From Nostocales cyanobacterium LEGE 11386 (lineage in GTDB: Bacteria > Cyanobacteriota > Cyanobacteriia > Cyanobacteriales > Nostocaceae), in contig JADEXK010000019.1 in NCBI GenBank assembly GCA_015207155.1, positions 18,438-50,437 on the forward strand: a stretch of 32,000 bases of DNA, written 5' to 3'. Within the stretch, counting starts at the first letter, position 1. The number at the start of each line of letters is the position of its first letter. Shown one piece after another: positions 5,936 through 31,736 of this stretch. A model generated the notes under the pieces. It was not told where the DNA came from, ran no database searches, and worked only from the letters and a program-made list of their open reading frames with translations. The translations under genes and the position numbers were made by a program.

Positions 5936-6038
5936 TCTTCTGAGTTGATGCGACAACAACCATTGAGCAACTATAGCAAAGTGCTGTAAAGCCCTGCGGG
6001 CATGGCTGCGCTTATAGCCCGTGCTGAGTGTTAACCCA

Positions 6039-6358
6039 ACGTGAGTTCGACAAGTGGAAAAAACCCCTCTCCAAACCTCTCCTCTGCCAGGCTATGGTGT
6101 ACCCACAAGTCTTCATCTTTTCCCCTCTGTGCCCTCTGCGTCCTCTGCGGTTAATGATTTTTTGAAACCACAGAGGCGCAGAGAACGCAGAGTAAGGAGT
6201 TTCGAGAGTTATTCTTTCTCATTTGTAGAGATGTGTGCACACGGTAGCCCCTGCCAGGAGAGAGGCTTTGAAACCTTGATTTTTAGTTGAAAATCAGGGA
6301 GATTTTTGCCCCTCTCCGTGTCGGAGAGGGGTTGGGGTGAGGTTCATCGAATTCACGT
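6039..6358. mobile_element. MITE copy A (320 bp) carrying a nested 160-bp secondary insertion
   Basis: Terminal inverted repeats are ACGTGAGTTCGA (6039-6050) and TCGAATTCACGT (6347-6358). A 7-bp direct repeat TAACCCA flanks the element at 6032-6038 and 6359-6365. The subterminal inverted repeat is AACCCCTCTCCAAACCTCTCC / GGAGAGGGGTTGGGGTGAGGTT. The backbone is near-identical to the copy at 20817-21015. The inner element at 6091-6250 is flanked by the direct repeat CTGCCAGG (6083-6090 and 6251-6258). Confidence 0.8.
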
Positions 6359-6599
6359 TAACCCAGTAGCTTCATTGCTCTGAGCAATTAACACTGTCCT
6401 AACCTATGTGACTACAGCTATAACTATCCCTCGCTACGCGGTGAGCGCAGCTATGCGCTTTTAAGGGTATATACTAGGAAGTCGCGTGAGACCAAGACCG
6501 CACTTGCTCCACCCTGCGGTCAGCCGTAGCAGCGTCTACAGCACTCCCCTGCGACTTCGCTCAGGGTAAGAATTGCACTCAGCACTCATTAAATCAGCC

Positions 6600-7992: not shown

Positions 7993-9375
7993 ATGGAAAT
8001 TCCCATTGACAGTCTGTGGAATCAGGTGTTAGAGCGCTTACAGCTAGAACTATCCCGTCCCACCTTTGAAACTTGGATCAAAACTGCTAATGCGGAGCGA
8101 TTAGAAAATAACTGCTTGATAATAATTACTCCTAACCCTTTTGCTCGTAATTGGTTACAAAAATATTACATCAACACGATCGCTCATGTAGTGCAAGACA
8201 TTTTGGGTCATCCTGTAGAAATCTATATTACTGTTGCTCAGGGTGATGGAATTACCCATTTGGGAGAACGAGATGCTGCTTGGGAGTTACCTAACCCAAG
8301 TATCATCGCTGAAACTGTGCCCCAAAAAAAGCAACCCACTACTGATTTAAACTCTAAATATGTATTTTCGCGATTTGTTGTTGGTGCTAACAATCGGATG
8401 GCTCACGCCGCATCCTTGGCTGTGGCGGAATCTCCAGGGCGGGAGTTTAATCCTTTATTTTTATGCGGTGGTGTCGGCTTGGGCAAAACCCATCTGATGC
8501 AAGCTATTGGTCATTATCGCCGGGAAATTTGCCCAGATTCCAAAATATTTTATGTGTCCACAGAGCAATTTACTAACGACTTAATTACAGCCATTCGCAA
8601 TGATAGTATGCAAAGTTTCCGGGAGCATTACCGAGCGGCTGATGTGTTGTTAGTAGATGATATTCAGTTTATTGAAGGTAAAGAATATACCCAAGAAGAA
8701 TTTTTTCATACTTTTAACACATTACATGAAGCTGGTAAGCAAGTAGTCATAGCTTCCGACCGTCCCCCTAATCAAATTCCTCGATTACAAGAACGTCTGT
8801 GTTCCCGGTTTTCTATGGGTTTAATTGCTGATGTGCAAACTCCAGATTTAGAAACTAGGATGGCAATTCTTCAGAAAAAAGCTGAGTACGAAAATATTCG
8901 CCTCCCCAGAGATGTAATTGAGTATATTGCTTCTAACTACACTTCTAATATTCGCGAGTTGGAAGGAGCCTTAATTCGGGCACTAGCTTATATTTCTATT
9001 TGGGGTTTACCAATGACAGTAGAAAATATCACACCAGTTTTAGAAACACAAAGCGAAAAAGTAGAAGCTACTCCAGAAACGATTTTAGCAGTTGTTGCTG
9101 ATACTTTTGATGTCTCAATTGAAGACCTGAAAAGTAACTCACGGCGGCGAGAAATTAGTTGGGCACGTCAAATAGGTATGTATTTAATGCGCCAACGGAC
9201 TGATCTGAGTTTACCGAGAATTGGTGAAGAGTTTGGTGGTAAAGATCATACAACGGTAATTTATAGTTGTGACAAAATTGCCCAACTCCAAGAAAGCGAT
9301 CGCACTTTAGCACAAACCCTCCGTCAATTGAGCGATCGCATCAATATGACTAGTCGTTCTCAAAAATCAACTTAA
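7993..9375 (+). CDS. dnaA: Chromosomal replication initiator protein DnaA
   Basis: 460-aa ORF with Walker [11 protein letters not shown], Walker B LLVDDIQF and a C-terminal DnaA-box-binding domain ([14 protein letters not shown]). A DnaA-box cluster and dnaN follow it. Confidence 0.97.
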
Positions 9376-9390
9376 ATTCTCAAAAAATTG

Positions 9391-9630
9391 TTTTCCCCAA
9401 CTACTACTGCCATAATTGTTGAGTAATTCAGGCAAAATATTAAGCAAAGTATAAAAACTGATTAAATTTAACTTTGTCTGTGGAAAAATCATTATTTCTT
9501 GGGGAAAACTTGATTAAGTATGATTACCCTGTGGAAAAAATAGGGGGTTTTTCCACAAGTTTTCCACAGCTATTAACCGACTCAACCATTCTTTCGCTTG
9601 ACTTGTGGCAAGTTTTCCACAGTTTCCACA
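9391..9630. promoter_or_regulatory. oriC candidate: DnaA-box cluster in the dnaA-dnaN intergenic region
   Basis: Exact TTTTCCACA boxes lie at 9549-9557, 9560-9568 and 9613-9621 on the + strand. Their complement TGTGGAAAA lies at 9479-9487 and 9530-9538. Near-boxes are GTTTCCACA (9622-9630), TTTTCCCCA (9391-9399), its complement at 9500-9508, and TTGTGGCAA (9603-9611). An AT-rich stretch follows at 9634-9666. Confidence 0.8.
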
Positions 9631-9689
9631 ATTCTGATAAATATCTATGATTTGATTAGTAAAAGCAACGTACCACTCCCCACTCCCCT

Positions 9690-10844
9690 ATGAAATTAGT
9701 TTGCGCCCAAAGCGATCTCAGTACAAATCTTTCACTCGTTAGCCGTGCAGTCCCGTCACGACCGACTCATCCGGTACTTGCCAATGTGCTGTTACAAGCA
9801 GATGCTCAAACTAACCAAGTTAGCTTAACTGCCTTTGATCTCAGCTTGGGTATCCGTACCAGCTTTCATGCTGAGGTATTAGAAGGAGGCGCGATCGCTC
9901 TGCCAGCTAAACTACTTTTAGATATCACCTCGCGGCTGCCAGAAGGCGAAGTCACTTTAGATGATGAATCAGCCGAAACATCCACCGGTGAAGGTCTCAT
10001 CGTTACCCTGACGCCAAAAAGTGGACATTATCAAGTCCGCGCCATGGAAGCTGAAGAGTTTCCCGAACTACCTATAATTGACAACACTGAACCCCTTAAT
10101 TTAACTACTACTGCCTTAATTGAAGGATTACGCGGTTCATTATTTGCTACCAGTGGTGATGAAACCAAGCAAGTACTAACGGGAGTACATTTAACAGTAA
10201 AACAAGACATCCTAGAATTTGCCGCTACCGACGGACATCGCCTCGCCGTAGTAGAAACCACTAACGAAAGCCCCCTTGGTGATCATGGTCAACTAGAAGT
10301 GACAGTCCCAGCTAGAGCCTTACGCGAACTACAACGAATGTTGGCTCATAATGCTGCCTCCGATGAAGCGATCGCTTTATATTTAGATCAAGGTCAAGTT
10401 GTGTTTGCCTGGCAAAATCAAAGATTGACGAGCCGCACCTTAGACGGGCAATATCCAGCTTATCGCCAACTCATTCCACGCCAATTTGAACGCCAAGTGA
10501 CAATTGAACGGCGACAATTTATCAGCACTTTGGAGCGAATAGCCGTGCTAGCTGACCAGAAAAATAATATTGTTAAAGTCAGTATTGACAGCGCTGCCCA
10601 GGAACTGACTTTATCGTGTGAAGCTCAAGATGTGGGTAGCGGTAGAGAATCTATACTTGCAAAAATATCTGGAGAAGATATAGAAATTGCTTTTAACATC
10701 AAGTATTTGATGGAAGGACTAAAAGAGTTACCATCTGCCGAAATTCAAATGAACCTCAATCAACCCCTGACTCCAGTGATTTTTACACCAGTGGGTGAAT
10801 TAAAAATGACTTATTTAGCTATGCCTGTACAACTCAGGAATTAG
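9690..10844 (+). CDS. dnaN: DNA polymerase III beta sliding clamp
   Basis: 384-aa ORF with a typical N-terminus (MKLVCAQSDLSTNLSLVSRAVPSRPTHPVLANVLL). It has the typical length and the typical position after dnaA. Confidence 0.97.
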   Translation: MKLVCAQSDLSTNLSLVSRAVPSRPTHPVLANVLLQADAQTNQVSLTAFDLSLGIRTSFHAEVLEGGAIALPAKLLLDITSRLPEGEVTLDDESAETSTGEGLIVTLTPKSGHYQVRAMEAEEFPELPIIDNTEPLNLTTTALIEGLRGSLFATSGDETKQVLTGVHLTVKQDILEFAATDGHRLAVVETTNESPLGDHGQLEVTVPARALRELQRMLAHNAASDEAIALYLDQGQVVFAWQNQRLTSRTLDGQYPAYRQLIPRQFERQVTIERRQFISTLERIAVLADQKNNIVKVSIDSAAQELTLSCEAQDVGSGRESILAKISGEDIEIAFNIKYLMEGLKELPSAEIQMNLNQPLTPVIFTPVGELKMTYLAMPVQLRN

Positions 10845-10915: not shown

Positions 10916-13900
10916 TCAATTTAAACTTGACAGACTAAGAGGGGAAATCGGGATTTCAATCCAGAATTCTGTACCTGAACCTGGTTGAGAATTACATTTA
11001 AAAAGACCGTGGTGCTTCTCCACCACAATTTGATAACTAATTGATAACCCTAAACCAGTACCTTTGCCTACAGGTTTGGTAGTGAAAAATGGGTCAAAAA
11101 CTCTTTTTTTGACAACTTCGGGTATACCACTTCCATTGTCGGCAATGCGAATAATGACACTTTTAACTTTGTTATTCAATTCACCAATACTAGTATGAAT
11201 GGTAATTTGATGAAGATGAGTTGCTGATTGCGACTCCCGTTGATTTTCTATCGCATCGATCGCATTGCTCAAAACATTCATAAATACTTGATTCATTTGT
11301 CCGGCATAGCACTCTACCAACGGTAAATCAGCGTATTCTTTGACTACGTGAATACCGGGACTATCGGGTTGGGCCTTCAAACGATGCTGTAAAATCAGCA
11401 AGGTACTATCAATACCCTCGTGAATATTCACAGCTTTCATTTCCGCTTCATCCAGACGCGAGAAATTGCGTAAAGACATAACAATCTGCCGGATGCGATC
11501 AACCCCAATCTTCATAGAAGATAAAGTTTTAGGCAAATCTTCGGTCACAAATTCTAAGTCCATCTCTTCCGCCCGCTCAATAATTTCTAGACTCGGATGA
11601 GGACAATGCTGCTGATAAAGAGCTACCATACTCGCTAAATCCTCAGCATATTCACTTACATGGGCTAGGTTGCCATAAATAAAATTCACTGGGTTGTTGA
11701 TTTCGTGAGCAACACCTGCAACCAGTTGACCCAAACTAGACATTTTCTCGGTCTGGATCAGTTGGGTTTGAGTTTGTTGTAAATTTTGCATAGCTTGTAC
11801 TAGCTGATCTGCCTGTTCCTTGCTCTGCTTTAGCAGCTCGGCTTGTTGCAGTGCTACCCCCAACTGATTGGCAATTTGAGCAATGAACTTAATTTCTGCG
11901 GCTTCCCAGTAGCGGGGTGTAGAGTTTTGATAAGCCGCCAACAAACCCCAAAGTTTTTGCCCAATAAAAATTGGCGCGATCGCATAAGCTTTTACCTGAC
12001 ATTTCTCCAGAAATGCAACATGACATTCAGAGTGACCAGCCTGATATATGTCATTTACGGCAAAGGTTTGATTGTGGCGATATCGCCCACCTTGAGTTTC
12101 CTGTAAATAAGAATCTTGCCAAACTGTATTGACATCTAACCCTACTAACTTCACCCAGCCGTCAACGACAAACTCAGCGACAAACTCACCACTCCAATCT
12201 GGGTGAAAGCGATAAACAGCCACGCGATCTGCTTGCAGAGATTTACAAATTTCCTGAGTAGTAGTTTGAAAAATAGCATTTAAATCTAGAGATTCCCTAA
12301 TTTTTGCCACAACTTCAAACAATACCCGTTGTCGTTCTGCCGACTGGCGCAAATTTAATGCTTGCTGCTGTGTTTGTGCAAGTAGTTCAGCTTGTTGGAG
12401 TGCTACCCCAAGTTGGGCTGCAACTTGACTCAAAAAGTTAACTTCAGAGGTTTGCCACTGGCGGCTACCAGAGTGTTGATAAGTTGCCAGCAAGCCCCAA
12501 AGTCTCTGCCCCACAAAAATAGGAGCCAGCACAAAAGCATGAATATGAAACTCTTCTAGATTCTCGATATGACACTGTGTGAACCCCATTTTGTAGATGT
12601 CGTCTACTGCAAATGTTTCGTTGTAGCGGTAGCGTCCTCCTTCTGAATCTTGTAAGTAAGTGTCATTCCAAACCAAATTAATTCCTAGTTTGGACTCATT
12701 TAACCAGTATGGGCTTGCAGCCTCAAAATCGCCGACAAATTCACCACCCCAATCAGCACTGAAGCGATAAATGGAAACCCGATCAGCTTTAATTAATTGA
12801 CAAACTTCTTTGGTAGTGATTTGAAAAATGGTATTCGTGTCTAAAGATTCCCGAATTTTGGCAATCACCCCAAATACAGCTTGTTGTTGTTCAGATGTCC
12901 GTTGCAGTTCAAGTGTGCGTTTTTTCACTTGATGTTCTAAGTTGGCATTAAAGGATTGCACCTGCTGGTATAGTTCATATTGCTGAATGGCTGATGCAAA
13001 ATGGTTGCCGATTTCTCTAGCCAGTTCAATCTCTGCAACCGTCCATTTTTGAGCTTGTGCTTTTTTAGATTCCCGCCACACTTCAAACGATAAACGGGGA
13101 TATACTTGCCTTTGGTCAAAGTCAAATTGACCTGCCCACAAAGTTTCTGTATCTATTTCGTTGCGGAAAATACTTAAATAGCCCACTAATTGCTGACGAT
13201 ACTCGAGTGGGATCATCAAGATACTGCGAATTTTAGTTGGTTGGAAGGCAGCTTGTAAACTTCGCAGTTCTGGAGTTTGGTATATGTCGGAAATTGCCCA
13301 AACCTCATAGTCGTGAGACTTGTAATGTTCCTGCCAGACGTTATATTGCTCCATCAGTGGATATATATTTTGTGCTGGCATTACAGGCTGCTGTCCGCAG
13401 GTATAAACCTGGACACAATCGCTCCCTGGTATCAAACATTCTGTTAGGCTTGTAACTTTGCCATGATGGAAATCAAAAGCTTCATTTCTGAGGCAAAGCC
13501 TGCCACCACAACCATCAAAGGCGGCAACAGCTGCTTCTAAAGCTGGCTGTAAGACAATTGTTGGCAGTGAATGCAGCAGGGCAGAAATCCGGTTAATAAT
13601 AGTTTCTCGTTGTGCTTGTTCACGAGCTTGAGTTAACAGGGTACTTTGCGCGATCGCGATCGACAACTGATCTACTACCATCTGCACCGCTTCTAATTCA
13701 TATTCTGAAATCGCACGTGATTCAGAATTGTGAGATACTAACAAACCCCAAAGTTCATTTTGATAGAAAATAGGCGCTACTAAAGAAGATTTAACCCCCA
13801 TTGCCGTTAAATATTCCACATGGCACGGGTCTACAGGGCGATACCGGATATCCTCTGATAATATTTCTCCATTTTCCAACTCGTGCAGAGGACTTTGACC

Positions 13901-14236
13901 AATTTGCTGCGTTTCCACATTGACAACAGAGCGCACCCTTGATTTAATAAATAATTCGCGGGCGTGGGGTGGAATGTCATCAGCTGGAAAATTTAGCCCC
14001 AGCAATGATGGTAATCGGTTCTCATGAATCGACTCACCTATAACTTGGCCACTACCATCGGCATGAAATTGATAAATCATTACTCGGTCAGTTCCTAATA
14101 ATGAACAGACTTCTGCCGTCGTTGCCGTGATAATTTCTTCTAGTTCTAATGTTTGACGGATACGATTTGTAATGCGGCGCAGTACACTTTCTTGGTTAAT
14201 ACTTTCCCGCAAATTTGATTTAGCGATCGGTGACAT
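10916..14236 (-). CDS. Knotless phytochrome / cyanobacteriochrome hybrid histidine kinase: bilin GAF, PHY, two CBCR-type GAFs, HisKA, HATPase
   Basis: 1106-aa ORF. GAF1 has the DIP motif [13 protein letters not shown] and VDPC138HVEYL. The second domain carries the PHY-tongue motifs W367AG, P380RLSF and W387RE. GAF3 reads [16 protein letters not shown]...FTQC555HIENL. GAF4 reads [16 protein letters not shown]...HSEC738HVAFL. HisKA is GVAH844EINNP, and the ATPase has N, G1 and G2 boxes (NAIDAI, DNGSGI, GTGLGLS). Confidence 0.9.
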
Positions 14237-20787: not shown

Positions 20788-20816
20788 GATTTTTTACCCC
20801 CGAAGACTCTTAATTA

Positions 20817-21015
20817 ACGTGAATTCGACAACTATCAAAAACCCCTCTCCAAACCTCTCCCCTGTCAGGAGGAGCCACTGCGTTGCGCGGGTTCCCCGCG
20901 TTGTAGCACGTGGCGTTAGAGGCTTTGAAACCTTGATTTTTAGTTCAAAACTAGGGAGATTTTTGCCCCTCTCCGACACGGAGAGGGGTTGGGGTGAGGT
21001 TCATCGAACTCACGT
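20817..21015. mobile_element. MITE copy B (199 bp)
   Basis: Terminal inverted repeats are ACGTGAATTCGA (20817-20828) and TCGAACTCACGT (21004-21015). A 7-bp direct repeat TTAATTA flanks the element at 20810-20816 and 21016-21022. The backbone matches copy A (6039-6358). It also carries a ~47-bp internal GC-rich palindromic insert, GAGCCACTGCGTTGCGCGGGTTCCCCGCGTTGTAGCACGTGGCGTTA. Confidence 0.85.
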
Positions 21016-21174
21016 TTAATTAACAGTGTGAACTGTGTATTTTGAAAAGCTTCTTTCTTATGGGTGATATTTTTGTATATCTGGAGAAGCAATTCTCATA
21101 GAAGATAAACAGAAGTCACTGCCGAGTATTGAAGTGATAATATATTGTTGTCGGCGCTCTAATCCCCGCTCTAG

Positions 21175-24509: not shown

Positions 24510-24837
24510 TACTTACCTCAGTATATGAGTTTTATTTTTGCAAATTATTCCCATATTATTGATGCAGAGTGCGATCGCACATCTTACTAGAGTGAGGTAA
24601 TTGGGGAATTCACAGATAGAGAATTACACAATCACTGCATATAACTGCCTACGGGCAAAAAATGCTGGCAGCAAACTGAAACAAAATGCAAAAATATAGA
24701 TATAAAGCTACTTATGGAAATACACCTAGTAGATAACTGTCCCAGCAGCAACTCACTTACGGCATACTTTGTCTGTAAAAGAGACAAACTATCTTCTGCG
24801 GACGTTCCCTAATTTATTAATCCTACTTTTTCCACCC

Positions 24838-27480
24838 ATGCCTGATAATCCCCAGAAACTTAGCGGTAACGAAATTCGCAACTCATTCCTTAACTTCTTT
24901 GCCCAGCGAGGACACCAAATTCTCCCCAGTGCTTCCGTTGTGTCAGAAGACCCGACCTTGTTGCTGACGGTCGCGGGGATGGTACCATTTAAGCCGATAT
25001 TCCTGGGACAGCGCACACCAGAATTCAATCGGGCTACCACTTCTCAAAAGTGCATCCGTACCAACGACATCGAAAACGTGGGACGCACCAAACGCCATCA
25101 CACGTTTTTTGAGATGTTGGGTAATTTTAGCTTTGGTGATTATTTTAAAGAACAAGCGATCGCTTGGGGTTGGGAAATCTCCACCAAAGTCTTCGGCTTA
25201 TCTCCAGAACGTCTGGTAGTCAGCGTCTTTGAAGAAGATGATGAAGCTTATAATATTTGGCGCGATCAAATTGGCGTACCAGCAGCCAGAATTAAGCGCA
25301 TGGGTGCAGATGATAACTTTTGGACAATGGCTGCTACTGGGCCTTGTGGCCCTTGTTCGGAAATTTATTATGACTTCTACCCGGAACGCGGTGATGAAAA
25401 TATCGATTTAGAAGACGATACCCGATTTATCGAATTTTATAACCTCGTCTTCATGCAATATAACCGGGATGCATCAGGTAATTTAACACCTCTGCAAAAT
25501 AAGAATATCGATACTGGCATGGGTTTGGAACGGATGGCGCAAATCCTCCAACAAGTATCGAATAACTATGAAACTGATTTAATTTTCCCGATTATCCAGA
25601 CAACAGCCCAAATTGCGGGGATTGATTACCACAGCAGCGATGAGAAAACTAAAGTCTCACTGAAAGTTATTGGTGATCATGTGCGTTCCGTTGTCCACAT
25701 GATTGCCGATGAAATTCGCGCCTCCAATGTGGGGCGGGGTTATGTGTTGCGGCGCTTAATTCGGCGGGTAGTGCGTCATGGGCGATTAATTGGCATTGCT
25801 GGCGAATTTATTAACCAAGTTGCCGAAACTGCGATCGCGCTTTCTGAATCAGCTTACCCCAATGTGCGCCAACGAGAAGCAGCTATTAAAGCTGAACTGC
25901 AACGAGAAGAAACCAACTTCCTGAAAACTCTAGATAGGGGTGAGAAACTTTTAGCAGAAGTCATCCAAGAGGTAAAACAGCAAAATCAAACCCAAATTAG
26001 CGGTGAAAGTGCCTTTACTTTATACGATACCTTCGGTTTCCCGTTAGAACTCACCCAAGAAATCGCGGAAGAAAATCACCTCACAGTTGATGAAGCGGGA
26101 TTTGATGCCGAAATGCAAAAACAGGTGGAACGTGCCAAAGCCGCCCACGAAACCATCGATTTAACTGTACAAGGTTCCCTCGACAAGTTAGCCGAACACA
26201 TCCACGCCACCGAATTCTTAGGTTATACCCAAGCTGCGGCGACAGCAAACGTTGAAGCCATATTAATAGATGGCATTGCCCAAGAAGCAGCAGAAGCCGG
26301 GACAGAAGTGCAAATTGTCCTGAATCAAACCCCATTTTATGCAGAATCTGGGGGACAAATAGGCGATCACGGTTATATCTCCGGTGATGGTGTGTTGGTG
26401 CGCGTGGAAGATGTGAAAAGAGAATCTGATTTCTTTGTCCACTTTGGACGCATCGAACGCGGTACAATCCGAGTAGGAGATGCTGTGACTGCTCAAATAG
26501 ATCGGGCTTGTCGTCGTCGCGCTCAAGCTAATCATACTGCAACGCATCTATTACAAGCAGCGTTAAAGAAAATTGTCGATGATGGTATATCTCAAGCCGG
26601 TTCCCTGGTTTCCTTTGATAGATTGCGCTTTGACTTCAACTGTCCCCGTGCATTGACACCAGAAGAAGTCCAGCAAGTTGAGGAACAGGTGAATACTTGG
26701 ATTGCCGAAGCCCATACGGCGAACGTAGAAGTATTACCTTTAGCAGAAGCCAAGGCTAGAGGTGCAGTTGCCATGTTCGGAGAAAAATACGGCGAAGAAG
26801 TCCGCGTGATTGACTTTCCTAGCGTATCAATGGAACTGTGCGGTGGAACTCATGTCAATAATACTGCGGAGATTGGCATATTTAAAATTATCTCTGAAGC
26901 TGGTGTAGCGTCTGGGGTACGACGCATTGAGGCTGTGTCTGGCCCAGCAATCTTGGATTATCTCAATGTTCGGGATAAGGTAGTCAAAGATTTAAGCGAT
27001 CGCTTTAAAGTTAAACCCGAAGAATTACCAGAGAGAATTACCACGCTGCAAACTGAACTGAGAAATAGTGAGAAAGAATTAGCCAGTTTGAAATCACAAT
27101 TGGCGATCGCTAAATCTGACAGCTTGCTGCAAACAGTAGAATCTGTAGGCGATTATCAAATTTTGGTAGCGCAAATGGAAGATGTTGACCCGGAATCTTT
27201 GAAAACTGCTGCTGAAAGGTTACTGCAAAAAATCGGTAACGGTGCAGTGGTTCTGGGTTCGGTTCCAGAAGAGGGGAAGGTAAGTATAGTTGCAGCCTTC
27301 AGTACAGAGGTGAATAAAAAGGGACTGCAAGCCGGTAAATTTGTCGGTGCTATTGCGAAGATTTGCGGCGGTGGCGGCGGTGGTAGACCGAATTTAGCCC
27401 AAGCCGGCGGACGTGATGCGAGTAAGTTACCGGAGGCGTTAGCCAAGGCGCAGAGTGATTTGCGATCGGCCTTGAGTTAA
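24838..27480 (+). CDS. alaS: Alanine--tRNA ligase
   Basis: The class II core reads HTFFEMLGNFSFGDYFK, the editing-domain HxxxH is HTATHLL, and the C-terminal DHHA1-type tail is GGGGGGRPNLAQAGG. The track ORF starts at TTG 24769. ATG 24838 (MPDNPQKLSGNEIRNSFLNFF) gives the canonical ~880-aa protein. Confidence 0.97.
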   Translation: MPDNPQKLSGNEIRNSFLNFFAQRGHQILPSASVVSEDPTLLLTVAGMVPFKPIFLGQRTPEFNRATTSQKCIRTNDIENVGRTKRHHTFFEMLGNFSFGDYFKEQAIAWGWEISTKVFGLSPERLVVSVFEEDDEAYNIWRDQIGVPAARIKRMGADDNFWTMAATGPCGPCSEIYYDFYPERGDENIDLEDDTRFIEFYNLVFMQYNRDASGNLTPLQNKNIDTGMGLERMAQILQQVSNNYETDLIFPIIQTTAQIAGIDYHSSDEKTKVSLKVIGDHVRSVVHMIADEIRASNVGRGYVLRRLIRRVVRHGRLIGIAGEFINQVAETAIALSESAYPNVRQREAAIKAELQREETNFLKTLDRGEKLLAEVIQEVKQQNQTQISGESAFTLYDTFGFPLELTQEIAEENHLTVDEAGFDAEMQKQVERAKAAHETIDLTVQGSLDKLAEHIHATEFLGYTQAAATANVEAILIDGIAQEAAEAGTEVQIVLNQTPFYAESGGQIGDHGYISGDGVLVRVEDVKRESDFFVHFGRIERGTIRVGDAVTAQIDRACRRRAQANHTATHLLQAALKKIVDDGISQAGSLVSFDRLRFDFNCPRALTPEEVQQVEEQVNTWIAEAHTANVEVLPLAEAKARGAVAMFGEKYGEEVRVIDFPSVSMELCGGTHVNNTAEIGIFKIISEAGVASGVRRIEAVSGPAILDYLNVRDKVVKDLSDRFKVKPEELPERITTLQTELRNSEKELASLKSQLAIAKSDSLLQTVESVGDYQILVAQMEDVDPESLKTAAERLLQKIGNGAVVLGSVPEEGKVSIVAAFSTEVNKKGLQAGKFVGAIAKICGGGGGGRPNLAQAGGRDASKLPEALAKAQSDLRSALS

Positions 27481-27496
27481 TTGTCTTCTCTTGTAG

Positions 27497-27520
27497 GGCG
27501 GGCATCTTGCCTGCCTTAAT
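27497..27520 (+). terminator. Possible alaS terminator hairpin
   Basis: GGCGGGCA (27497-27504), loop TCT, TGCCTGCC (27508-27515, one G-T pair), then the A/T-rich TTAATCATAAATT. It forms part of a dispersed repeat half-site. Confidence 0.4.
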
Positions 27521-27546
27521 CATAAATTCAGTTACACAATACTTTT

Positions 27547-27882
27547 ATGACTATCAAAAAACTCCTTTTCCAAGAAATTGAATCCTCCCCAGACTCTCTT
27601 CTAGAAGAAACTCTAGACTTTTTGCGCTTTCTCAAAACTAAGCAAGAAGCAGACAAAAAAGATACACCTGCCTCACCAGTTAAATTAGAAGATACCCAGA
27701 GACTACCAGAATCTCAGTCAGTAGACAATTCTCAATTACCTTACCGTCCAGCTTCCGGGCGTTCAATTCTGAGACACGCTGGAACCTGGGAAGGCGATGA
27801 CTTTCAAGAGTGTCTTCAGTTGGTTTACGCCACGCGTGGTAAAGCCAAATTTGATTATGACTTGAATCCTTTTGATTCATGA
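27547..27882 (+). CDS. Type II antitoxin-like protein (DUF2281-like N-terminus), partner of the downstream PIN fragment
   Basis: 111-aa ORF with N-terminus LLFQEIESSPDSLLEETLDFLRFLKTKQ and C-terminus GRSILRHAGTWEGDDFQECLQ, as in cyanobacterial VapB-type antitoxins. Its stop overlaps the next start in ATGA (27879-27882). Confidence 0.65.
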   Translation: MTIKKLLFQEIESSPDSLLEETLDFLRFLKTKQEADKKDTPASPVKLEDTQRLPESQSVDNSQLPYRPASGRSILRHAGTWEGDDFQECLQLVYATRGKAKFDYDLNPFDS

Positions 27883-28145
27883 ATCTATTAGATACAAACC
27901 ACTGTAGCGCCATCATCCTCGGCGAACCAAACGTCATCCGTCGAATAGCTGAGGTAGGAGAATTAAATATTGCTACCTGCGTAATTGTGCAGGGAAAACT
28001 TACATATATGATGGAAAATTCTGCCAAGAGAGAAACTAATCTCGCTCGGTTGAAAGATTTTCTCGCAAATATAGGTATCTACAGCGTTACAGAGGACAGC
28101 CAAAGACCAAACAGAAGTATCAACAATAACGCTCATGTCTGCTGA
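27879..28145 (+). pseudogene. Truncated VapC (PIN-domain) toxin
   Basis: The 88-aa ORF starts with the PIN N-terminal motif MNLLDTNHCSAII...ATCVIVQGKLTYMMENSAKRETNLARLKDFL. PIN-like sequence ends at about residue 74 (nt ~28100). After that the sequence is unrelated (QRPNRSINNNAHVC), and the C-terminal acidic residues of a ~130-aa PIN domain are absent. Confidence 0.6.
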
Positions 28146-28351
28146 CGTTGCTGCTTGTAGTCATAGTCTGCATCATAATCGATAGTACCAAAGAGTTCTA
28201 ACACTTTAAGCCGCTTACGACGTTGAATATATTCGCGTAGTGCTGTTTCCACCAGAGAATCAATGGACGCGTGGTCTTTAAGTGCCAATGCTTCTTGTAG
28301 TAGGGCTTCGTTTATGTTGAGTGGTGTAGCCACAATCAATTTTGATTCCAC
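28133..28351 (-). CDS. Orphan VapB-family (DUF2191-like, RHH) antitoxin
   Basis: 72-aa ORF, LNINEALLQEALALKDHASIDSLVETALREYIQRRKRLKVLELFGTIDYD. The cognate toxin gene expected downstream on the minus strand (below 28133) is absent. That space is occupied by the truncated plus-strand PIN fragment. Confidence 0.65.
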   Translation of the reverse strand: MESKLIVATPLNINEALLQEALALKDHASIDSLVETALREYIQRRKRLKVLELFGTIDYDADYDYKQQRQQT

Positions 28352-28378
28352 AACTGACTAAATCGATAGTAACGCATT

Positions 28379-28531
28379 CTGTATCTGGCCCGGCGATATT
28401 GGATTATCTCAATGTTCGCGATAAAGTAGTCAAGGATTTAAGCGATCGCTTTAAAGTTAAACCCGAAGAATTACCAGAGAGAATCACCACTCTGCAAACT
28501 GAACTGAGAAATAGTGAGAAACAATTAGCAA
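28379..28531 (+). pseudogene. Relic fragment of a second alaS allele, equivalent to alaS nt 26933-27085
   Basis: The alignment is collinear with a constant offset of 1446 nt and no indels, with 11 mismatches in 153 nt. It encodes VSGPAILDYLNVRDKVVKDLSDRFKVKPEELPERITTLQTELRNSEK, identical to AlaRS. A further 7-nt match (ACGCATT, 28372-28378 = 26922-26928) lies across a 4-nt gap. Homology ends abruptly at ~28531. Confidence 0.92.
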
Positions 28532-28771
28532 CATTCACGCGCTACCGCTATTCCCTGATTTTACCAGTAGTCATTGACACCAATATTTTTGTCTCACGCA
28601 AAGGCGCAAAGACGCAAAGAAAGACATATTATCAGCAATAGTATAGTTTAATTTAAATACATGAAAGTTGCTGTAAAAGCGAAAACCAAAATTCATAGCT
28701 ATAATTTATACCGTTTGAAAATTCTACTGTGATAGACTAGTCAAGCATAATCCCTGACTGATACTTGCTAA

Positions 28772-30376
28772 ATGGTGTACGTCTATTCAAATTTCGACCA
28801 GAAAAACCTCAAATGGTTTCCCAACGATACCACCCGTGCAACCCTGCTCACAATCAAAGTCTTACGAGGTCAAATACGTGGTCTTAAGGGAGTTACTATT
28901 GACTTTCATTATCCAATAACAGCCATTGCTGGACGGAATGGTTCTTGTAAAACTACAGTTCTCGCTTTATCAGCCTGTGCCTTTCACAACAAGTCTAATA
29001 GCTTCAAGTTACCTGGAAGAAAACATCCTTATTATACTTTTTCAGATTTCTTTATCCAGACAAAAGAGGAATCACAACTTGGTGATATAGCAATTCACTA
29101 TCAAATTCTTCACAACAACTGGAGAATTACGAAGCATAATGCGAATAAGGCTGGTTCAAGTTGGCAGCTACGCCGGAAGAAGGCTGGAAGTCGATGGAAT
29201 AACTATGATTCAAGAGTTATACGCACCGTTGTATTTCTTGGTGTTGAGCGTATTGTTCCACATGCAGAAAGAAGTGTATCTAAGAGCTATAAAGGTCGGT
29301 TTCAGCCAGCAACAGATCACGGATGGGAAGATAGTGTTCGTGTAACTGTAGGAAAAATTCTTGGTACTAACTATACAAGTTTTAGCTATAGTCGATATGC
29401 AAGATATCGTTTGCCTATTGTGGCTAAGAACGATTTGAAGGTCTATTCGGGCTTCAATATGGGAGCAGGTGAACACTCTTTATTTGAGTTATTCTCAATC
29501 ATCCATGAATGCCCAGATGGTTCACTTATTTTGATTGACGAGATAGAATTGGGTCTTCATGAGAAGGCACAAGAAAAATTAATTGAAGAATTAAAGAAAA
29601 TATGTGAAAAACGTAAATTCCAAATTATTTGTACAACTCATTCTTCTCGAATTATTGAATCATTACCACCAGAAGGCAGAATTTTTATTGAACGCATTGG
29701 TGATCAGACTACTATCATACCAGAAATTTCGCCAGCCTATGCAACTGGAAAACTTTCTGGTCGTCTAAATGTTGAGTTAGATATTGTAGTAGAAGATGAG
29801 GCAGCTCAATTAATAGTAGAAACAGTTTTAGATAATGAGCTACGCTCACGTACAAAAGTTTTACCTATTGGTTCAGCAACAGCAGTTATGCGATATCTTA
29901 GTGCAAAATATAAAGAATATACGTACAAACAAGATGGAACTATAGAACTTTGTGTAATTCTTGACGGTGATCAAGCACCGAAAAAATCTGAGCATATTAG
30001 GCAATTCTTAAACAGTCTGGAAAAACTTAATGATACGGAAAAAGAAAAGGCTAAAGATTGGGTAGAAAAACGCCTGACATTTCTACCGGGAAATGATTGG
30101 CCTGAATTATGGATTATTACGCCAAACAATAAAGAAGCATTTTACGAAAGATTTCAGAGAGAATTCCAAATATCGAATGCAGCAGTCGATGAAATGTTAG
30201 ATTCAGCATCTAGGGCTGGTAAGCATAATGAATTCAATGAAGTAGCAAAAATATTAAATTATGATGATAAAGTTGTAGCCAGTCATCTCATTAAGAGTGC
30301 TTTTGAATCAGAACCAGAAGAATCAAAAAGAATTATTAATTTCATGCGGGGTTTTCTGGGAGAGAAAAAAATATAG
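28772..30376 (+). CDS. SMC/ABC-type ATPase fused to a TOPRIM-like C-terminal module; OLD-family/GajA/PARIS(AriAB)/AbiL-like candidate defence nuclease
   Basis: 534-aa ORF. Walker A is AGRNGSCKT (nt 28931-28954). There is a signature-like YSGFNMGAGEHSLFEL, a Walker B/D-loop LILIDEIELGLHE (nt ~29525-29560) and an H-loop ICTTHSS. The C-terminal part has ELDIVVEDEAAQLIVE (acidic beta-strand, E341) and CVILDGDQ (DxD, nt 29963-29971), as in Toprim domains. The gene contains no HIP1 site. The CDS call is confident, but the function is inferred. Confidence 0.8.
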   Translation: MVYVYSNFDQKNLKWFPNDTTRATLLTIKVLRGQIRGLKGVTIDFHYPITAIAGRNGSCKTTVLALSACAFHNKSNSFKLPGRKHPYYTFSDFFIQTKEESQLGDIAIHYQILHNNWRITKHNANKAGSSWQLRRKKAGSRWNNYDSRVIRTVVFLGVERIVPHAERSVSKSYKGRFQPATDHGWEDSVRVTVGKILGTNYTSFSYSRYARYRLPIVAKNDLKVYSGFNMGAGEHSLFELFSIIHECPDGSLILIDEIELGLHEKAQEKLIEELKKICEKRKFQIICTTHSSRIIESLPPEGRIFIERIGDQTTIIPEISPAYATGKLSGRLNVELDIVVEDEAAQLIVETVLDNELRSRTKVLPIGSATAVMRYLSAKYKEYTYKQDGTIELCVILDGDQAPKKSEHIRQFLNSLEKLNDTEKEKAKDWVEKRLTFLPGNDWPELWIITPNNKEAFYERFQREFQISNAAVDEMLDSASRAGKHNEFNEVAKILNYDDKVVASHLIKSAFESEPEESKRIINFMRGFLGEKKI

Positions 30377-30430: not shown

Positions 30431-31036
30431 TTATCGAGGAAGAATATCATCTAGGCGAAGTTGAAGACGAGGCAAAAGCGGTGAATTAATCAATTGATTT
30501 AATCGATATTGTTGTTGAGTATAAGTATCTTCAACCAGTTGGCAAATAGTAAAAGTTGGTTGTTTTGGTTTACCAATAAAAGCTACACCACCCAATCCTC
30601 GATAATCGACAATCCAATATTCAGGAATGCCTAAAAGTGCATACTCTTCAACTTTGCGAGCATAGTCAGTTTCCCAATTTGTACTCACAACTTCAACCAC
30701 CAATTTAATTGAGCGTCCCAAAGTAACTATGGGTTCTCGTTCCCAGAGGGGTTCACGAGCAAGAACTGTTTCATCTAGAACCACAACATCAGGACGACGA
30801 ATTGTCGCTGCATCTGCAAAGGGATAAATTAAACAAGTGCGAGGAATAAACCAAGGAAGTTTTTCTGCAACAAGGTTTATACCTATTTGGGTTGCAATTT
30901 TACCACTCACCGTTTCGTGGAGGCCAGTGGGTTCCATGTCAATTAGTTCTCCGTCTGCTAATTCATAGCGGGGATTATCTTGATATTGAGAAAGAAAATC
31001 TTCTTTAGTGAGGTTTTTTTGGGAGATATAGGCCAT
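30431..31036 (-). CDS. Uma2-family (DUF820) putative endonuclease
   Basis: The sequence reads YELADGELIDMEPTGLHETVSG...RRPDVVVLD...KLVVEVVSTNWETDYARKVEEYALLGIPEYWIVDYRG, a PD-(D/E)XK-like Uma2 pattern. The track ORF extends to 31165, but ATG 31036 (MAYISQKNL...) gives the usual ~200 aa. The extension runs through HIP1-containing repeat sequence. Confidence 0.85.
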   Translation of the reverse strand: MAYISQKNLTKEDFLSQYQDNPRYELADGELIDMEPTGLHETVSGKIATQIGINLVAEKLPWFIPRTCLIYPFADAATIRRPDVVVLDETVLAREPLWEREPIVTLGRSIKLVVEVVSTNWETDYARKVEEYALLGIPEYWIVDYRGLGGVAFIGKPKQPTFTICQLVEDTYTQQQYRLNQLINSPLLPRLQLRLDDILPR

Positions 31037-31361
31037 TGACTCAATCTCCGGTAATTTATATGTTCTTATCTTAAAGTATCTAACCACACCATAGCAAAAA
31101 CGATCGCACAACCTCAACTCTCGTAAAGCGCGATGGCGCTTTGCGCCCGCCGGAGGCGATCGCATTATTTCTATATACTTGTTTTAGGAAAACAGAGTAC
31201 GTGTATCTACAAGCTACTTCAGCTTTTTCAACACTTCTTTTTAACTAGGCGACGGCGAGTAACAAATATTCTAGCTACTAGATCAATATCTACAAGCTAG
31301 TTAGCTCGGATACATTTTGTGATCAAAAATCCAATATTTTAGCCAAACTTTGATAGTGCGA

Positions 31362-31736
31362 TTAAAACAGCCGAAAAATGAACGGATAACGGAACGGTTG
31401 ATCAGAATTAGTCAGACAATGCCACAGCGCCCAAATTGTCAGTCCCCAGTGTAGTGCAAAGCCCAAAGCCACAAGGGGGAAGAATAAAATTCCACCAATG
31501 CCAAATGTGAGCCAAGACAGAATCCCGATGGGAACCCCGATTATAGTTGCCCAAAACCAAACATTGAAGTGAAAATTAATCGATTCTTTGGCGTTGCTTT
31601 TCACAACTGGGTCGTCGGAAATTAAGTTAATTACAATCGGCACCCCAATTGAGAACAATGTTGTACTAAAGAAAATTGCCCCGTGACACAGAGATGATAG
31701 CAATTTACGCTGATTAGAATCGTATCCAACTTGCAT
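31362..31736 (-). CDS. Small integral membrane protein, DUF4870-like
   Basis: 124-aa ORF with 3-4 hydrophobic helices and an inter-helix KSNAKESINFHFNVWFW segment typical of the family as I recall it. Confidence 0.65.
   Translation of the reverse strand: MQVGYDSNQRKLLSSLCHGAIFFSTTLFSIGVPIVINLISDDPVVKSNAKESINFHFNVWFWATIIGVPIGILSWLTFGIGGILFFPLVALGFALHWGLTIWALWHCLTNSDQPFRYPFIFRLF

Follow-up and report, generated by a model that had tools for sequence, protein, structure and literature searches.

Background

HEC-04 (Hma-embedded candidate 04) is a single-gene anti-phage system described by Payne et al. (bioRxiv 10.1101/2024.01.29.577857), and in this study we compare it, together with its plasmid-borne homologue IbfA, with a gene encoding a 534-residue protein in a 32,000-nucleotide stretch of DNA from Nostocales cyanobacterium LEGE 11386 (contig JADEXK010000019.1, positions 18,438 to 50,437), the whole of which is hereafter referred to as the window. 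The tested HEC-04 protein, from Escherichia coli MOD1-EC5853 (WP_044502283.1), lowered plaquing by several coliphages when present in E. coli; defence was lost in the K62A mutant and in the E319A/D375A/D377A mutant, and the strain was assayed without isopropyl beta-D-1-thiogalactopyranoside owing to apparent toxicity (bioRxiv 10.1101/2024.01.29.577857). The paper on IbfA, in summarizing that work, names T4 and T5 as phages affected (PMC12111858). IbfA, a protein of IncI1 plasmids identified as a HEC-04 homologue, produces an abortive-infection-like phenotype against a P22-like phage, in which burst size and cell viability are reduced and no lysis is observed (PMC12111858).

By every feature testable here, the 534-residue protein is a member of the HEC-04/IbfA family. 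An earlier note on this DNA, made from the letters alone, had proposed the gene as an unclassified and possibly undescribed defence candidate; the family is neither, being an already described and experimentally tested single-gene anti-phage family. Our analyses make it probable that the product of the gene is a single-polypeptide anti-phage protein belonging to this family, in which an ATP-binding cassette (ABC) sensor or switch would be joined to an OLD-like Toprim nuclease, and that the gene has long resided behind alaS.

Assignment to the HEC-04/IbfA family

The gene forms an intact, ATG-initiated open reading frame (Table 1), and all of the motifs listed in the earlier note are real. Across 45 aligned homologues, the enterobacterial IbfA-type protein among them, residues K60, D256, E257, H290, E341, D342, G367, D398 and D400 are invariant, a conservation of the catalytic motifs that lies far beyond chance. 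The first 19 residues are also conserved in this alignment, which supports the annotated start.

The HEC-04 model of PADLOC-DB (PDLC04149) matches the protein over its full length (residues 33-529 against positions 33-489 of the 494 in the profile) with E=1.4e-50 and 170 bits, about the same strength as that with which the tested E. coli representative matches its own model (5.2e-53). It is this match that removes the gene from the unclassified. Pairwise comparison with the first 399 residues of the E. coli protein, as given in Table S2 of Payne et al., yields 28% identity (E=3e-39), and in the alignment K62, E319 and D375/D377 of HEC-04 fall on K60, E341 and D398/D400. The mutants that the earlier note had proposed for a functional assay (K60A, E341A and D398A/D400A) are accordingly the exact equivalents of those that abolish defence by HEC-04. 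An IbfA-type plasmid protein of 518 residues, whose gene adjoins a ProQ/FinO gene, shows 27% identity over residues 35-407 (E=3e-18).

HEC-04 and the cyanobacterial protein have in common their organization as single proteins of about 490-535 residues, with an ABC ATPase and a C-terminal Toprim domain, a full-length match to the same model, and the position-for-position conservation of the Walker A lysine and of the Toprim glutamate and DxD residues required for defence. They differ in that the cyanobacterial protein carries about 24 extra residues between the Walker A lysine and the Toprim glutamate and a conserved N-terminal helix (M1-D19) that does not align to HEC-04, and in that its gene is chromosomal, next to alaS, and not embedded in an Hma system. 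The P-loop, signature, Walker B, H-loop, VED(D/E) and DGD motifs are all shared with IbfA (IncI1 plasmids R64/pUA1135) over residues 35-407. IbfA is thus a homologous ATPase-Toprim protein, and one for which single-gene phage interference is described; it differs in being plasmid-borne in Enterobacteriaceae, in an operon with ProQ/FinO-like neighbours (PMC12111858), and in a C-terminal helical part that could not be aligned by BLASTP. The full-length HEC-04 match and the conservation of defence-required residues argue, by analogy, that the gene was rightly singled out as a candidate for phage defence.

The absence of an adjacent helicase or second subunit, also anticipated from the letters, was confirmed: the neighbours of the ATPase gene are antitoxins, PIN remnants, Uma2 and DUF4870. 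No conserved partner gene occurs in eight homologue contexts, in which the neighbours differ, as expected of a stand-alone gene.

Predicted fold and relationship to OLD nucleases

Pfam models recognized the ATPase part of the protein, with matches to AAA_21 (1.6e-16), AAA_15 (8.4e-14) and SMC_N (1.8e-8) on residues 35-297. Beyond about residue 300 the full-protein scan gave no Pfam match, and residues 300-534 alone gave no Toprim, OLD or DUF4435 match in Pfam at E<=10; the NCBIfam matches, to PtuA and Eco8, were sub-threshold and confined to the Walker B segment. Support for the Toprim call consequently comes from the HEC-04 model, the conserved acidic residues and the predicted structure.

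The full-length protein was modelled with AlphaFold2 on a 44-sequence alignment, from which the plasmid IbfA row was left out, and reached a mean pLDDT (predicted local distance difference test) of 89.2 and a predicted template modelling score of 0.82. When this model was searched with Foldseek against the PDB, Thermus scotoductus OLD (6p74) came first (E=2.5e-12), followed by retron and Septu PtuA, Gabija GajA and retron Eco8, with SMC/Rad50 heads also among the matches. Whole-chain template modelling (TM) scores were low, from 0.25 to 0.41 (0.35 to 6p74), as expected where domain orientations differ, and for this reason the C-terminal domain was modelled alone (residues 296-534, 239 residues; pLDDT 90.2). 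Its top five PDB matches were the C-terminal Toprim regions of Burkholderia and Xanthomonas OLD proteins (6nk8/6njx/6njv/6njw), with E=4.7e-5 to 2.1e-4, probability 1.00 and TM-scores of 0.43-0.53, and the alignments, of about 210 columns, ran beyond the Toprim core and reached the helical domain. The next matches were GajA (E=0.017) and, marginally, the PARIS structure 8ux9_A (E=0.1, TM 0.27). The viral library BFVD yielded nothing more specific than generic ABC ATPases and a handful of 'ATP-dependent endonucleases' from giant viruses.

In the model, E341/D342 follow the first strand (residues 336-340) and D398-G-D400 follow the third (residues 392-397), which would place both at canonical Toprim positions. 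The predicted structures thus support a single polypeptide in which an ABC-type ATPase is joined to a nuclease-like Toprim domain at the C-terminus. The OLD-like architecture that had been proposed holds good on the Pfam ATPase matches and on the rank of OLD as top structural match both for the full length and for the C-terminal part; of the checks suggested for the C-terminal residues, comparison of the predicted structure returned the OLD fold, and the Pfam profiles for Toprim and OLD returned nothing.

This resemblance raises the possibility that the protein is a canonical class 1 OLD nuclease, of the P2 Old or T. scotoductus OLD type, and not a member of a separate HEC-04 lineage. The order of domains is the same in OLD proteins (sensu Schiltz et al.) of class 1 (6p74) and class 2 (6nk8/6njx), with an ABC ATPase followed by a Toprim and a helical domain, and with acidic metal-binding residues at the expected Toprim positions; these proteins are the closest structural matches for the whole chain and for the C-terminal domain, the length is similar (534 against 512-528 residues), and some sources label homologues of the present protein 'predicted ATP-dependent endonuclease of OLD family'. 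At the level of sequence, however, T. scotoductus OLD was reached only through Walker B (E=0.052 with a single sequence; 2.9e-7 with a profile, on residues 251-294 only), with no profile match elsewhere, and the whole-chain TM-score of 0.35 and the lack of any Toprim or OLD match in Pfam for the C-terminal domain point the same way. The ATPase inserts of these systems are structurally distinct according to Payne et al. (bioRxiv 10.1101/2024.01.29.577857), and the full-length match to HEC-04 is much stronger. We therefore regard a class 1 OLD identity as unlikely. Class 2 OLD and Gabija differ further from the present gene, next to which no partner helicase of the UvrD/GajB type is found.

Distribution of homologues and residence next to alaS

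A search in a 90%-clustered protein database identified 1363 proteins at E<=1e-5 among scored candidates, and homologues of 515-535 residues with 47-95% identity were found in many cyanobacteria, Blastocatellia, Thermodesulfobacteriota and Methanosarcina. The C-terminal domain alone matched 187 cluster representatives at E<=1e-3 among 1.84 billion, and in complete matching proteins it corresponds to about residues 295-520 of some 520. Proteins of about 300 residues that match the C-terminal domain from their residue 71 were considered as a split two-gene variant and rejected, since their residue 1 corresponds to the invariant M230, which makes them truncated gene calls. The copies of Anabaena catenula, Phormidium CLA17 and Mastigocoleus lie in unrelated genomic contexts, and the Phormidium and Komarekiella copies are 78% identical, a value equal to that between the window and Komarekiella, which implies transfer between orders. 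Horizontal mobility is clear at the level of the family.

The position of the window copy is nevertheless shared with several relatives. In Brasilonema sp. UFV-L1 (79% identity), Komarekiella atlantica (78%) and the metagenome contig L089 (79%), a homologue lies on the same strand about 170 bp downstream of alaS; all three share the GGDEF, HMA and alaS genes upstream, and Komarekiella also has the DUF4870 gene downstream. Nucleotide alignments with these relatives break off at the stop codon of alaS (27480) and pick up again at 28674, some 100 nt ahead of the start of the ATPase gene. The resumed alignment includes a 16-nt invariant block, TAGCTATAATTTATAC, at 28696-28711, and within it a TATAAT box at 28700-28705, 66 nt before the ATG, which was seen by alignment only; a simple consensus promoter scan returned no plus-strand site in 28674..28771. 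This conserved box is likely to be the ATPase gene's own predicted promoter. A terminator-like hairpin, recognized by eye as an inverted repeat followed by a T-run, follows alaS in all three relatives. In Brasilonema, a gene for an IS605 OrfB (TnpB-like) protein lies just upstream of alaS (L084 3809-5146); it is present neither in the window nor in Komarekiella.

Pairwise identities of alaS and of the ATPase gene follow the same pattern, ((window, LLY), (Komarekiella, (Brasilonema, L089))), where LLY denotes Cyanocohniella sp. LLY, the source, with Nostoc sp. LLA-1, of the closest homologue (95% identity for the ATPase and 93% for alaS). Homologues at the same site and congruent identities together indicate a long residence next to alaS. 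Compared with Komarekiella and Brasilonema, the ATPase gene has a nucleotide identity of 82-83%, inside or a little over the range of 71-82% recorded for the flanking genes. At the amino-acid level the ATPase is less conserved than AlaS (78-79% vs 85-88%). Third-codon-position identity is higher for the ATPase gene (0.70-0.74) than for alaS (0.59-0.64), which could reflect either the strong AT bias of the ATPase gene or a later exchange between lineages.

The copy of Cyanocohniella sp. LLY is truncated (L002 3201-4713). Its ATPase sequence begins at the equivalent of codon 20 (window 28831), directly preceded by a DUF2281-like sequence, the conserved N-terminus is gone and the stop comes about 10 codons early; at the same locus the Uma2 gene is reduced to its last 195 nt. 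This copy is possibly a pseudogene, or else an assembly chimera, formed at repeated toxin-antitoxin sequences, in a metagenome-assembled genome.

Such a residence invites the reading that the gene is a host housekeeping or DNA-maintenance ATPase-nuclease, inherited vertically with alaS and without a part in immunity. The position by alaS is kept in at least four lineages with congruent identities, the surroundings consist of core genes, and the authors of the IbfA study themselves speculate on roles beyond defence (PMC12111858). Yet the gene was found downstream of alaS in none of 80 alaS loci fetched from other cyanobacterial species, 68 of them with at least 3 kb of downstream sequence, and this absence indicates the patchy distribution usual for defence genes. 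Universal synteny with alaS, which the earlier note had held against a defence role, is therefore not what these loci display. The homologues in unrelated contexts, the between-order transfer implied by the Phormidium copy, the truncated Cyanocohniella copy, the faster divergence of the protein relative to AlaS and the role of the tested homologues in defence likewise speak against a housekeeping function, which we consider improbable. The gene appears instead to be an old neighbour of alaS, patchily retained, in a family that moves horizontally.

Composition of the gene and the question of recent acquisition

The remaining reading of its origin, put forward in the earlier note, is that the gene arrived recently as part of a foreign islet. 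It has a GC content of 0.366, and of 0.256 at third codon positions, against 0.462 and 0.410 for alaS; it contains no HIP1 site (GCGATCGC), the nearest being at 28442 and 30415; toxin-antitoxin debris, an alaS fragment and Uma2 flank it; and the interval between alaS and DUF4870 is variable among relatives, the DUF4870 gene lying 1.3-9.1 kb downstream of alaS in 8 of the 80 loci. The window, however, has 34 HIP1 sites in its 32 kb, four gaps between sites are larger, and the probability of finding no site in 1605 bp is about 0.18; the gap is not significant within this window alone. The lack of HIP1 sites is thus correct as an observation and is not unusual as a signal. The seven cyanobacterial homologues that were examined likewise contain no site, whereas about 10 across the whole set would be expected at the local densities; the homologues being related, this test is not an independent one. 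Low GC content is also common to the seven, and HIP1 depletion and low GC would accordingly be lasting traits of the gene family and not marks of recent arrival. The atypical composition persists even in copies kept at one locus through speciation.

The shared site and conserved upstream region in Komarekiella, Brasilonema and L089, the congruence with alaS and a nucleotide identity no lower than that of the flanking genes leave the recent-islet reading largely refuted here, and very unlikely overall. The insertion at this site is instead the stretch between alaS and the conserved upstream region (Table 1). It is absent in Komarekiella, Brasilonema and L089, where the gap between alaS and the ATPase gene is that of about 170 bp given above, and the break and resumption of the alignments at its two ends place its insertion in the lineage of the window. 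The decayed toxin-antitoxin block with its alaS fragment, and not the ATPase gene, is the newcomer, inserted after the ATPase gene was in place.

Other defence ATPases

Gabija GajA, PARIS AriA/AriB, Septu and retron PtuA and the retron Eco8 effector are defence-type ABC ATPases with similar heads, and GajA and the Eco8 effector also carry Toprim domains; they differ from the present protein in that all need partner proteins or a retron reverse transcriptase and non-coding RNA, which are absent here, and in that their models do not recognize its C-terminal domain. That the gene is an orphan retron effector (type I-B ATPase-Toprim), a fused PARIS (AriA-AriB) or an AbiL is a reading to which we give hardly any credence: PADLOC matches ATPase-Toprim_I-B (E=2.1e-29, residues 230-485) and the AriA, PtuA and AbiLi models (1e-13 to 1e-20), and PDB sequences of AriA and PtuA, are obtained, but they centre on the signature, Walker B and H-loop, with AriA and AbiLi matching the ATPase part only, in PADLOC the isolated C-terminal domain has HEC-04 as its only match, no DUF4435/AriB-type match is found and the PARIS structure is matched only marginally, no reverse transcriptase open reading frame lies nearby, Rfam gives 0 matches in the window, and no conserved reverse transcriptase, non-coding RNA or partner gene recurs in the eight homologue contexts. 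A specific kinship with retron effectors was dropped, as the I-B match disappears once the ATPase part is removed and so reflects mostly the ATPase.

Proposed mechanism and weight of the defence reading

In the mechanism that we favour, the ABC-type ATPase head would most likely dimerize on ATP and serve as an infection sensor or switch, and this ATP-dependent dimerization would link the recognition of an infection cue with the switching-on of the Toprim nuclease. The acidic cluster formed by the OLD-like Toprim glutamate and DxD would bind metal and cleave nucleic acid, and phage multiplication would be stopped at a cost to the cell, with an abortive-infection-like outcome. The literature on homologues is the source for defence against phages, for its dependence on the Walker A lysine and on the acidic residues of the Toprim domain, and for the toxicity seen on induction, all of which may be expected here by analogy; we infer that this copy takes part in phage defence and would be active in its cyanobacterial host.

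Several points weigh against this interpretation. Identity to the experimentally tested proteins, as aligned, is only 27-28%, and the defence tests of the HEC-04/IbfA family so far come only from Enterobacteriaceae. The C-terminal domain is unrecognized by any Pfam or NCBIfam model, and its TM-scores to OLD, computed on a predicted structure, are moderate. The gene is surrounded by housekeeping genes (dnaA, dnaN, alaS) and is not part of a defence island, and the conservation of its position may hint at a role for the host. Finally, the IbfA study found no ATP depletion and unimpaired phage DNA replication, and late phage transcripts fell (PMC12111858), which leaves room for a target other than DNA.

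These observations on IbfA, with phage DNA replication going on as late gene expression collapses, would fit a more specific proposal, in which the cyanobacterial clade is a functionally distinct branch of HEC-04 whose Toprim domain attacks RNA (e.g. tRNA) and not DNA. The PARIS effector AriB has been reported to attack RNA such as tRNA. If this proposal, which we regard as a long shot, were true, the unusually stable position directly behind alaS in several Nostocales would be functionally meaningful and not accidental.

The significance of a single-polypeptide HEC-04/IbfA protein at this locus is modest. A validated single-gene defence family, tested only in Enterobacteriaceae, is extended to filamentous cyanobacteria, and mutagenesis can draw on a confident model and a map of the residues. 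The locus also holds a caution for genome scanning, as low GC, the lack of HIP1 sites and toxin-antitoxin debris mimicked a fresh island around a defence gene that is an old resident. To the mechanism of the family (trigger, substrate and role of ATP) it adds no direct information.

Features of the locus and of the window

The coordinates of the gene, its domains and its flanks are collected in Table 1. The decayed toxin-antitoxin modules, the alaS relic and the Uma2 gene reported around the ATPase gene are all present.

Table 1. Coordinates in the window of the HEC-04/IbfA-family gene, its predicted domains and motifs, and the flanking features
Feature	Position	Strand	Basis or detail
alaS, upstream neighbour	24769..27480	+	Open reading frame; 85-93% identical at the amino-acid level to alaS in related Nostocales
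Inserted block between alaS and ATPase gene	27481..28673	.	DUF2281 antitoxin, two truncated PIN toxins, VapB, alaS fragment (Pfam)
DUF2281 antitoxin	27547-27882	-	Pfam
VapB antitoxin	28133-28351	-	Pfam
Internal alaS fragment, 162 nt	28372-28529		91% identical to 26922-27083
Conserved upstream region	28674..28771	+	Alignment with Komarekiella, Brasilonema, L089
HEC-04/IbfA-family gene	28772..30376	+	Open reading frame, PADLOC HEC-04 match, homologues of 515-535 residues
ABC/SMC-type ATPase head, about residues 24-329	28841..29758	+	Pfam, invariant columns, AlphaFold model, Foldseek
Walker A	28931-28954	+	K60, in GRNGSCKT, residues 54-61
Signature-like motif	29444-29473	+	S226, in YSGFNMGAGE, residues 225-234
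Walker B	29525-29542	+	D256/E257, in LILIDEIELGLHE, residues 252-264
H-loop	H290 at 29639	+	TTHS, residues 288-291
Predicted Toprim core, about residues 335-440	29774..30091	+	C-terminal model, invariant residues, alignment with HEC-04
Toprim E341/D342, after strand 1	29792-29797	+	IVVEDEAAQ, residues 338-346
Toprim G367/S368	within 29774..30091	+	Toprim core residues
Toprim D398-G-D400, after strand 3	29963-29971	+	ILDGDQ, residues 396-401
C-terminal helical domain, about residues 441-534	30092..30373	+	Secondary structure of models; invariant P444, W447, H485
Uma2	30431-31165	-	Between ATPase gene and DUF4870
DUF4870	31362-31736

The inserted block is shared with Cyanocohniella sp. LLY, whose copy keeps 1040 bp more, with the PIN genes intact; the loss of these 1040 bp in the window truncates two PIN toxins, and both antitoxins remain. 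The 3' flank of alaS is occupied by toxin-antitoxin cassettes interleaved with partial alaS copies, both in the window (27481-28673) and in Cyanocohniella (L004 6160-8364; L002 1-3200). At least three partial copies occur on two contigs of the latter (L004 8170-8349; L002 202-534 and 2240-2743), accompanied by DUF2281/PIN, HicB and VapBC genes, which suggests that recombination or integration has taken place repeatedly at the 3' end of alaS. A boundary of the alaS fragment shared by all copies, of the kind left by a single Campbell-type integration, was considered and dropped, as the start of the L002 copy lies about 70 nt further along than the starts of the window and L004 copies. The site is not a tRNA-linked integration site, no tRNA genes having been found in the window. 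In Komarekiella there is no Uma2 gene between the ATPase gene and DUF4870, and a DUF433 gene and an antitoxin/PIN pair are found instead, so that the downstream flank of the ATPase gene is also a variable spot.

Upstream, the window consists of core-chromosome genes: dnaA (7993-9375), dnaN (9690-10844), and genes for an HtrA-type protease, a phytochrome-like kinase, an ArsA-type ATPase and Ham1, followed nearer to alaS by genes for a GGDEF protein and a small HMA protein. The adjacent dnaA and dnaN genes (7993-10844) mark core chromosome, possibly near the replication origin, and the cumulative GC skew of the window has its minimum around 24-25 kb and then rises. A dispersed repeat (20816-21016 and 6038-6359) was also noted, with 93% identity between 20918-21016 and 6261-6359 and 87% between 20816-20869 and 6038-6091; it contains a 23-nt inverted match and may be a small mobile or regulatory repeat. 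The phytochrome-like protein is a histidine kinase of 1106 residues with three GAF domains, encoded on the minus strand (10916-14236), and a 67%-identical DNA repeat within its gene (11832-12307 vs 12381-12862) corresponds to tandem GAF domains.

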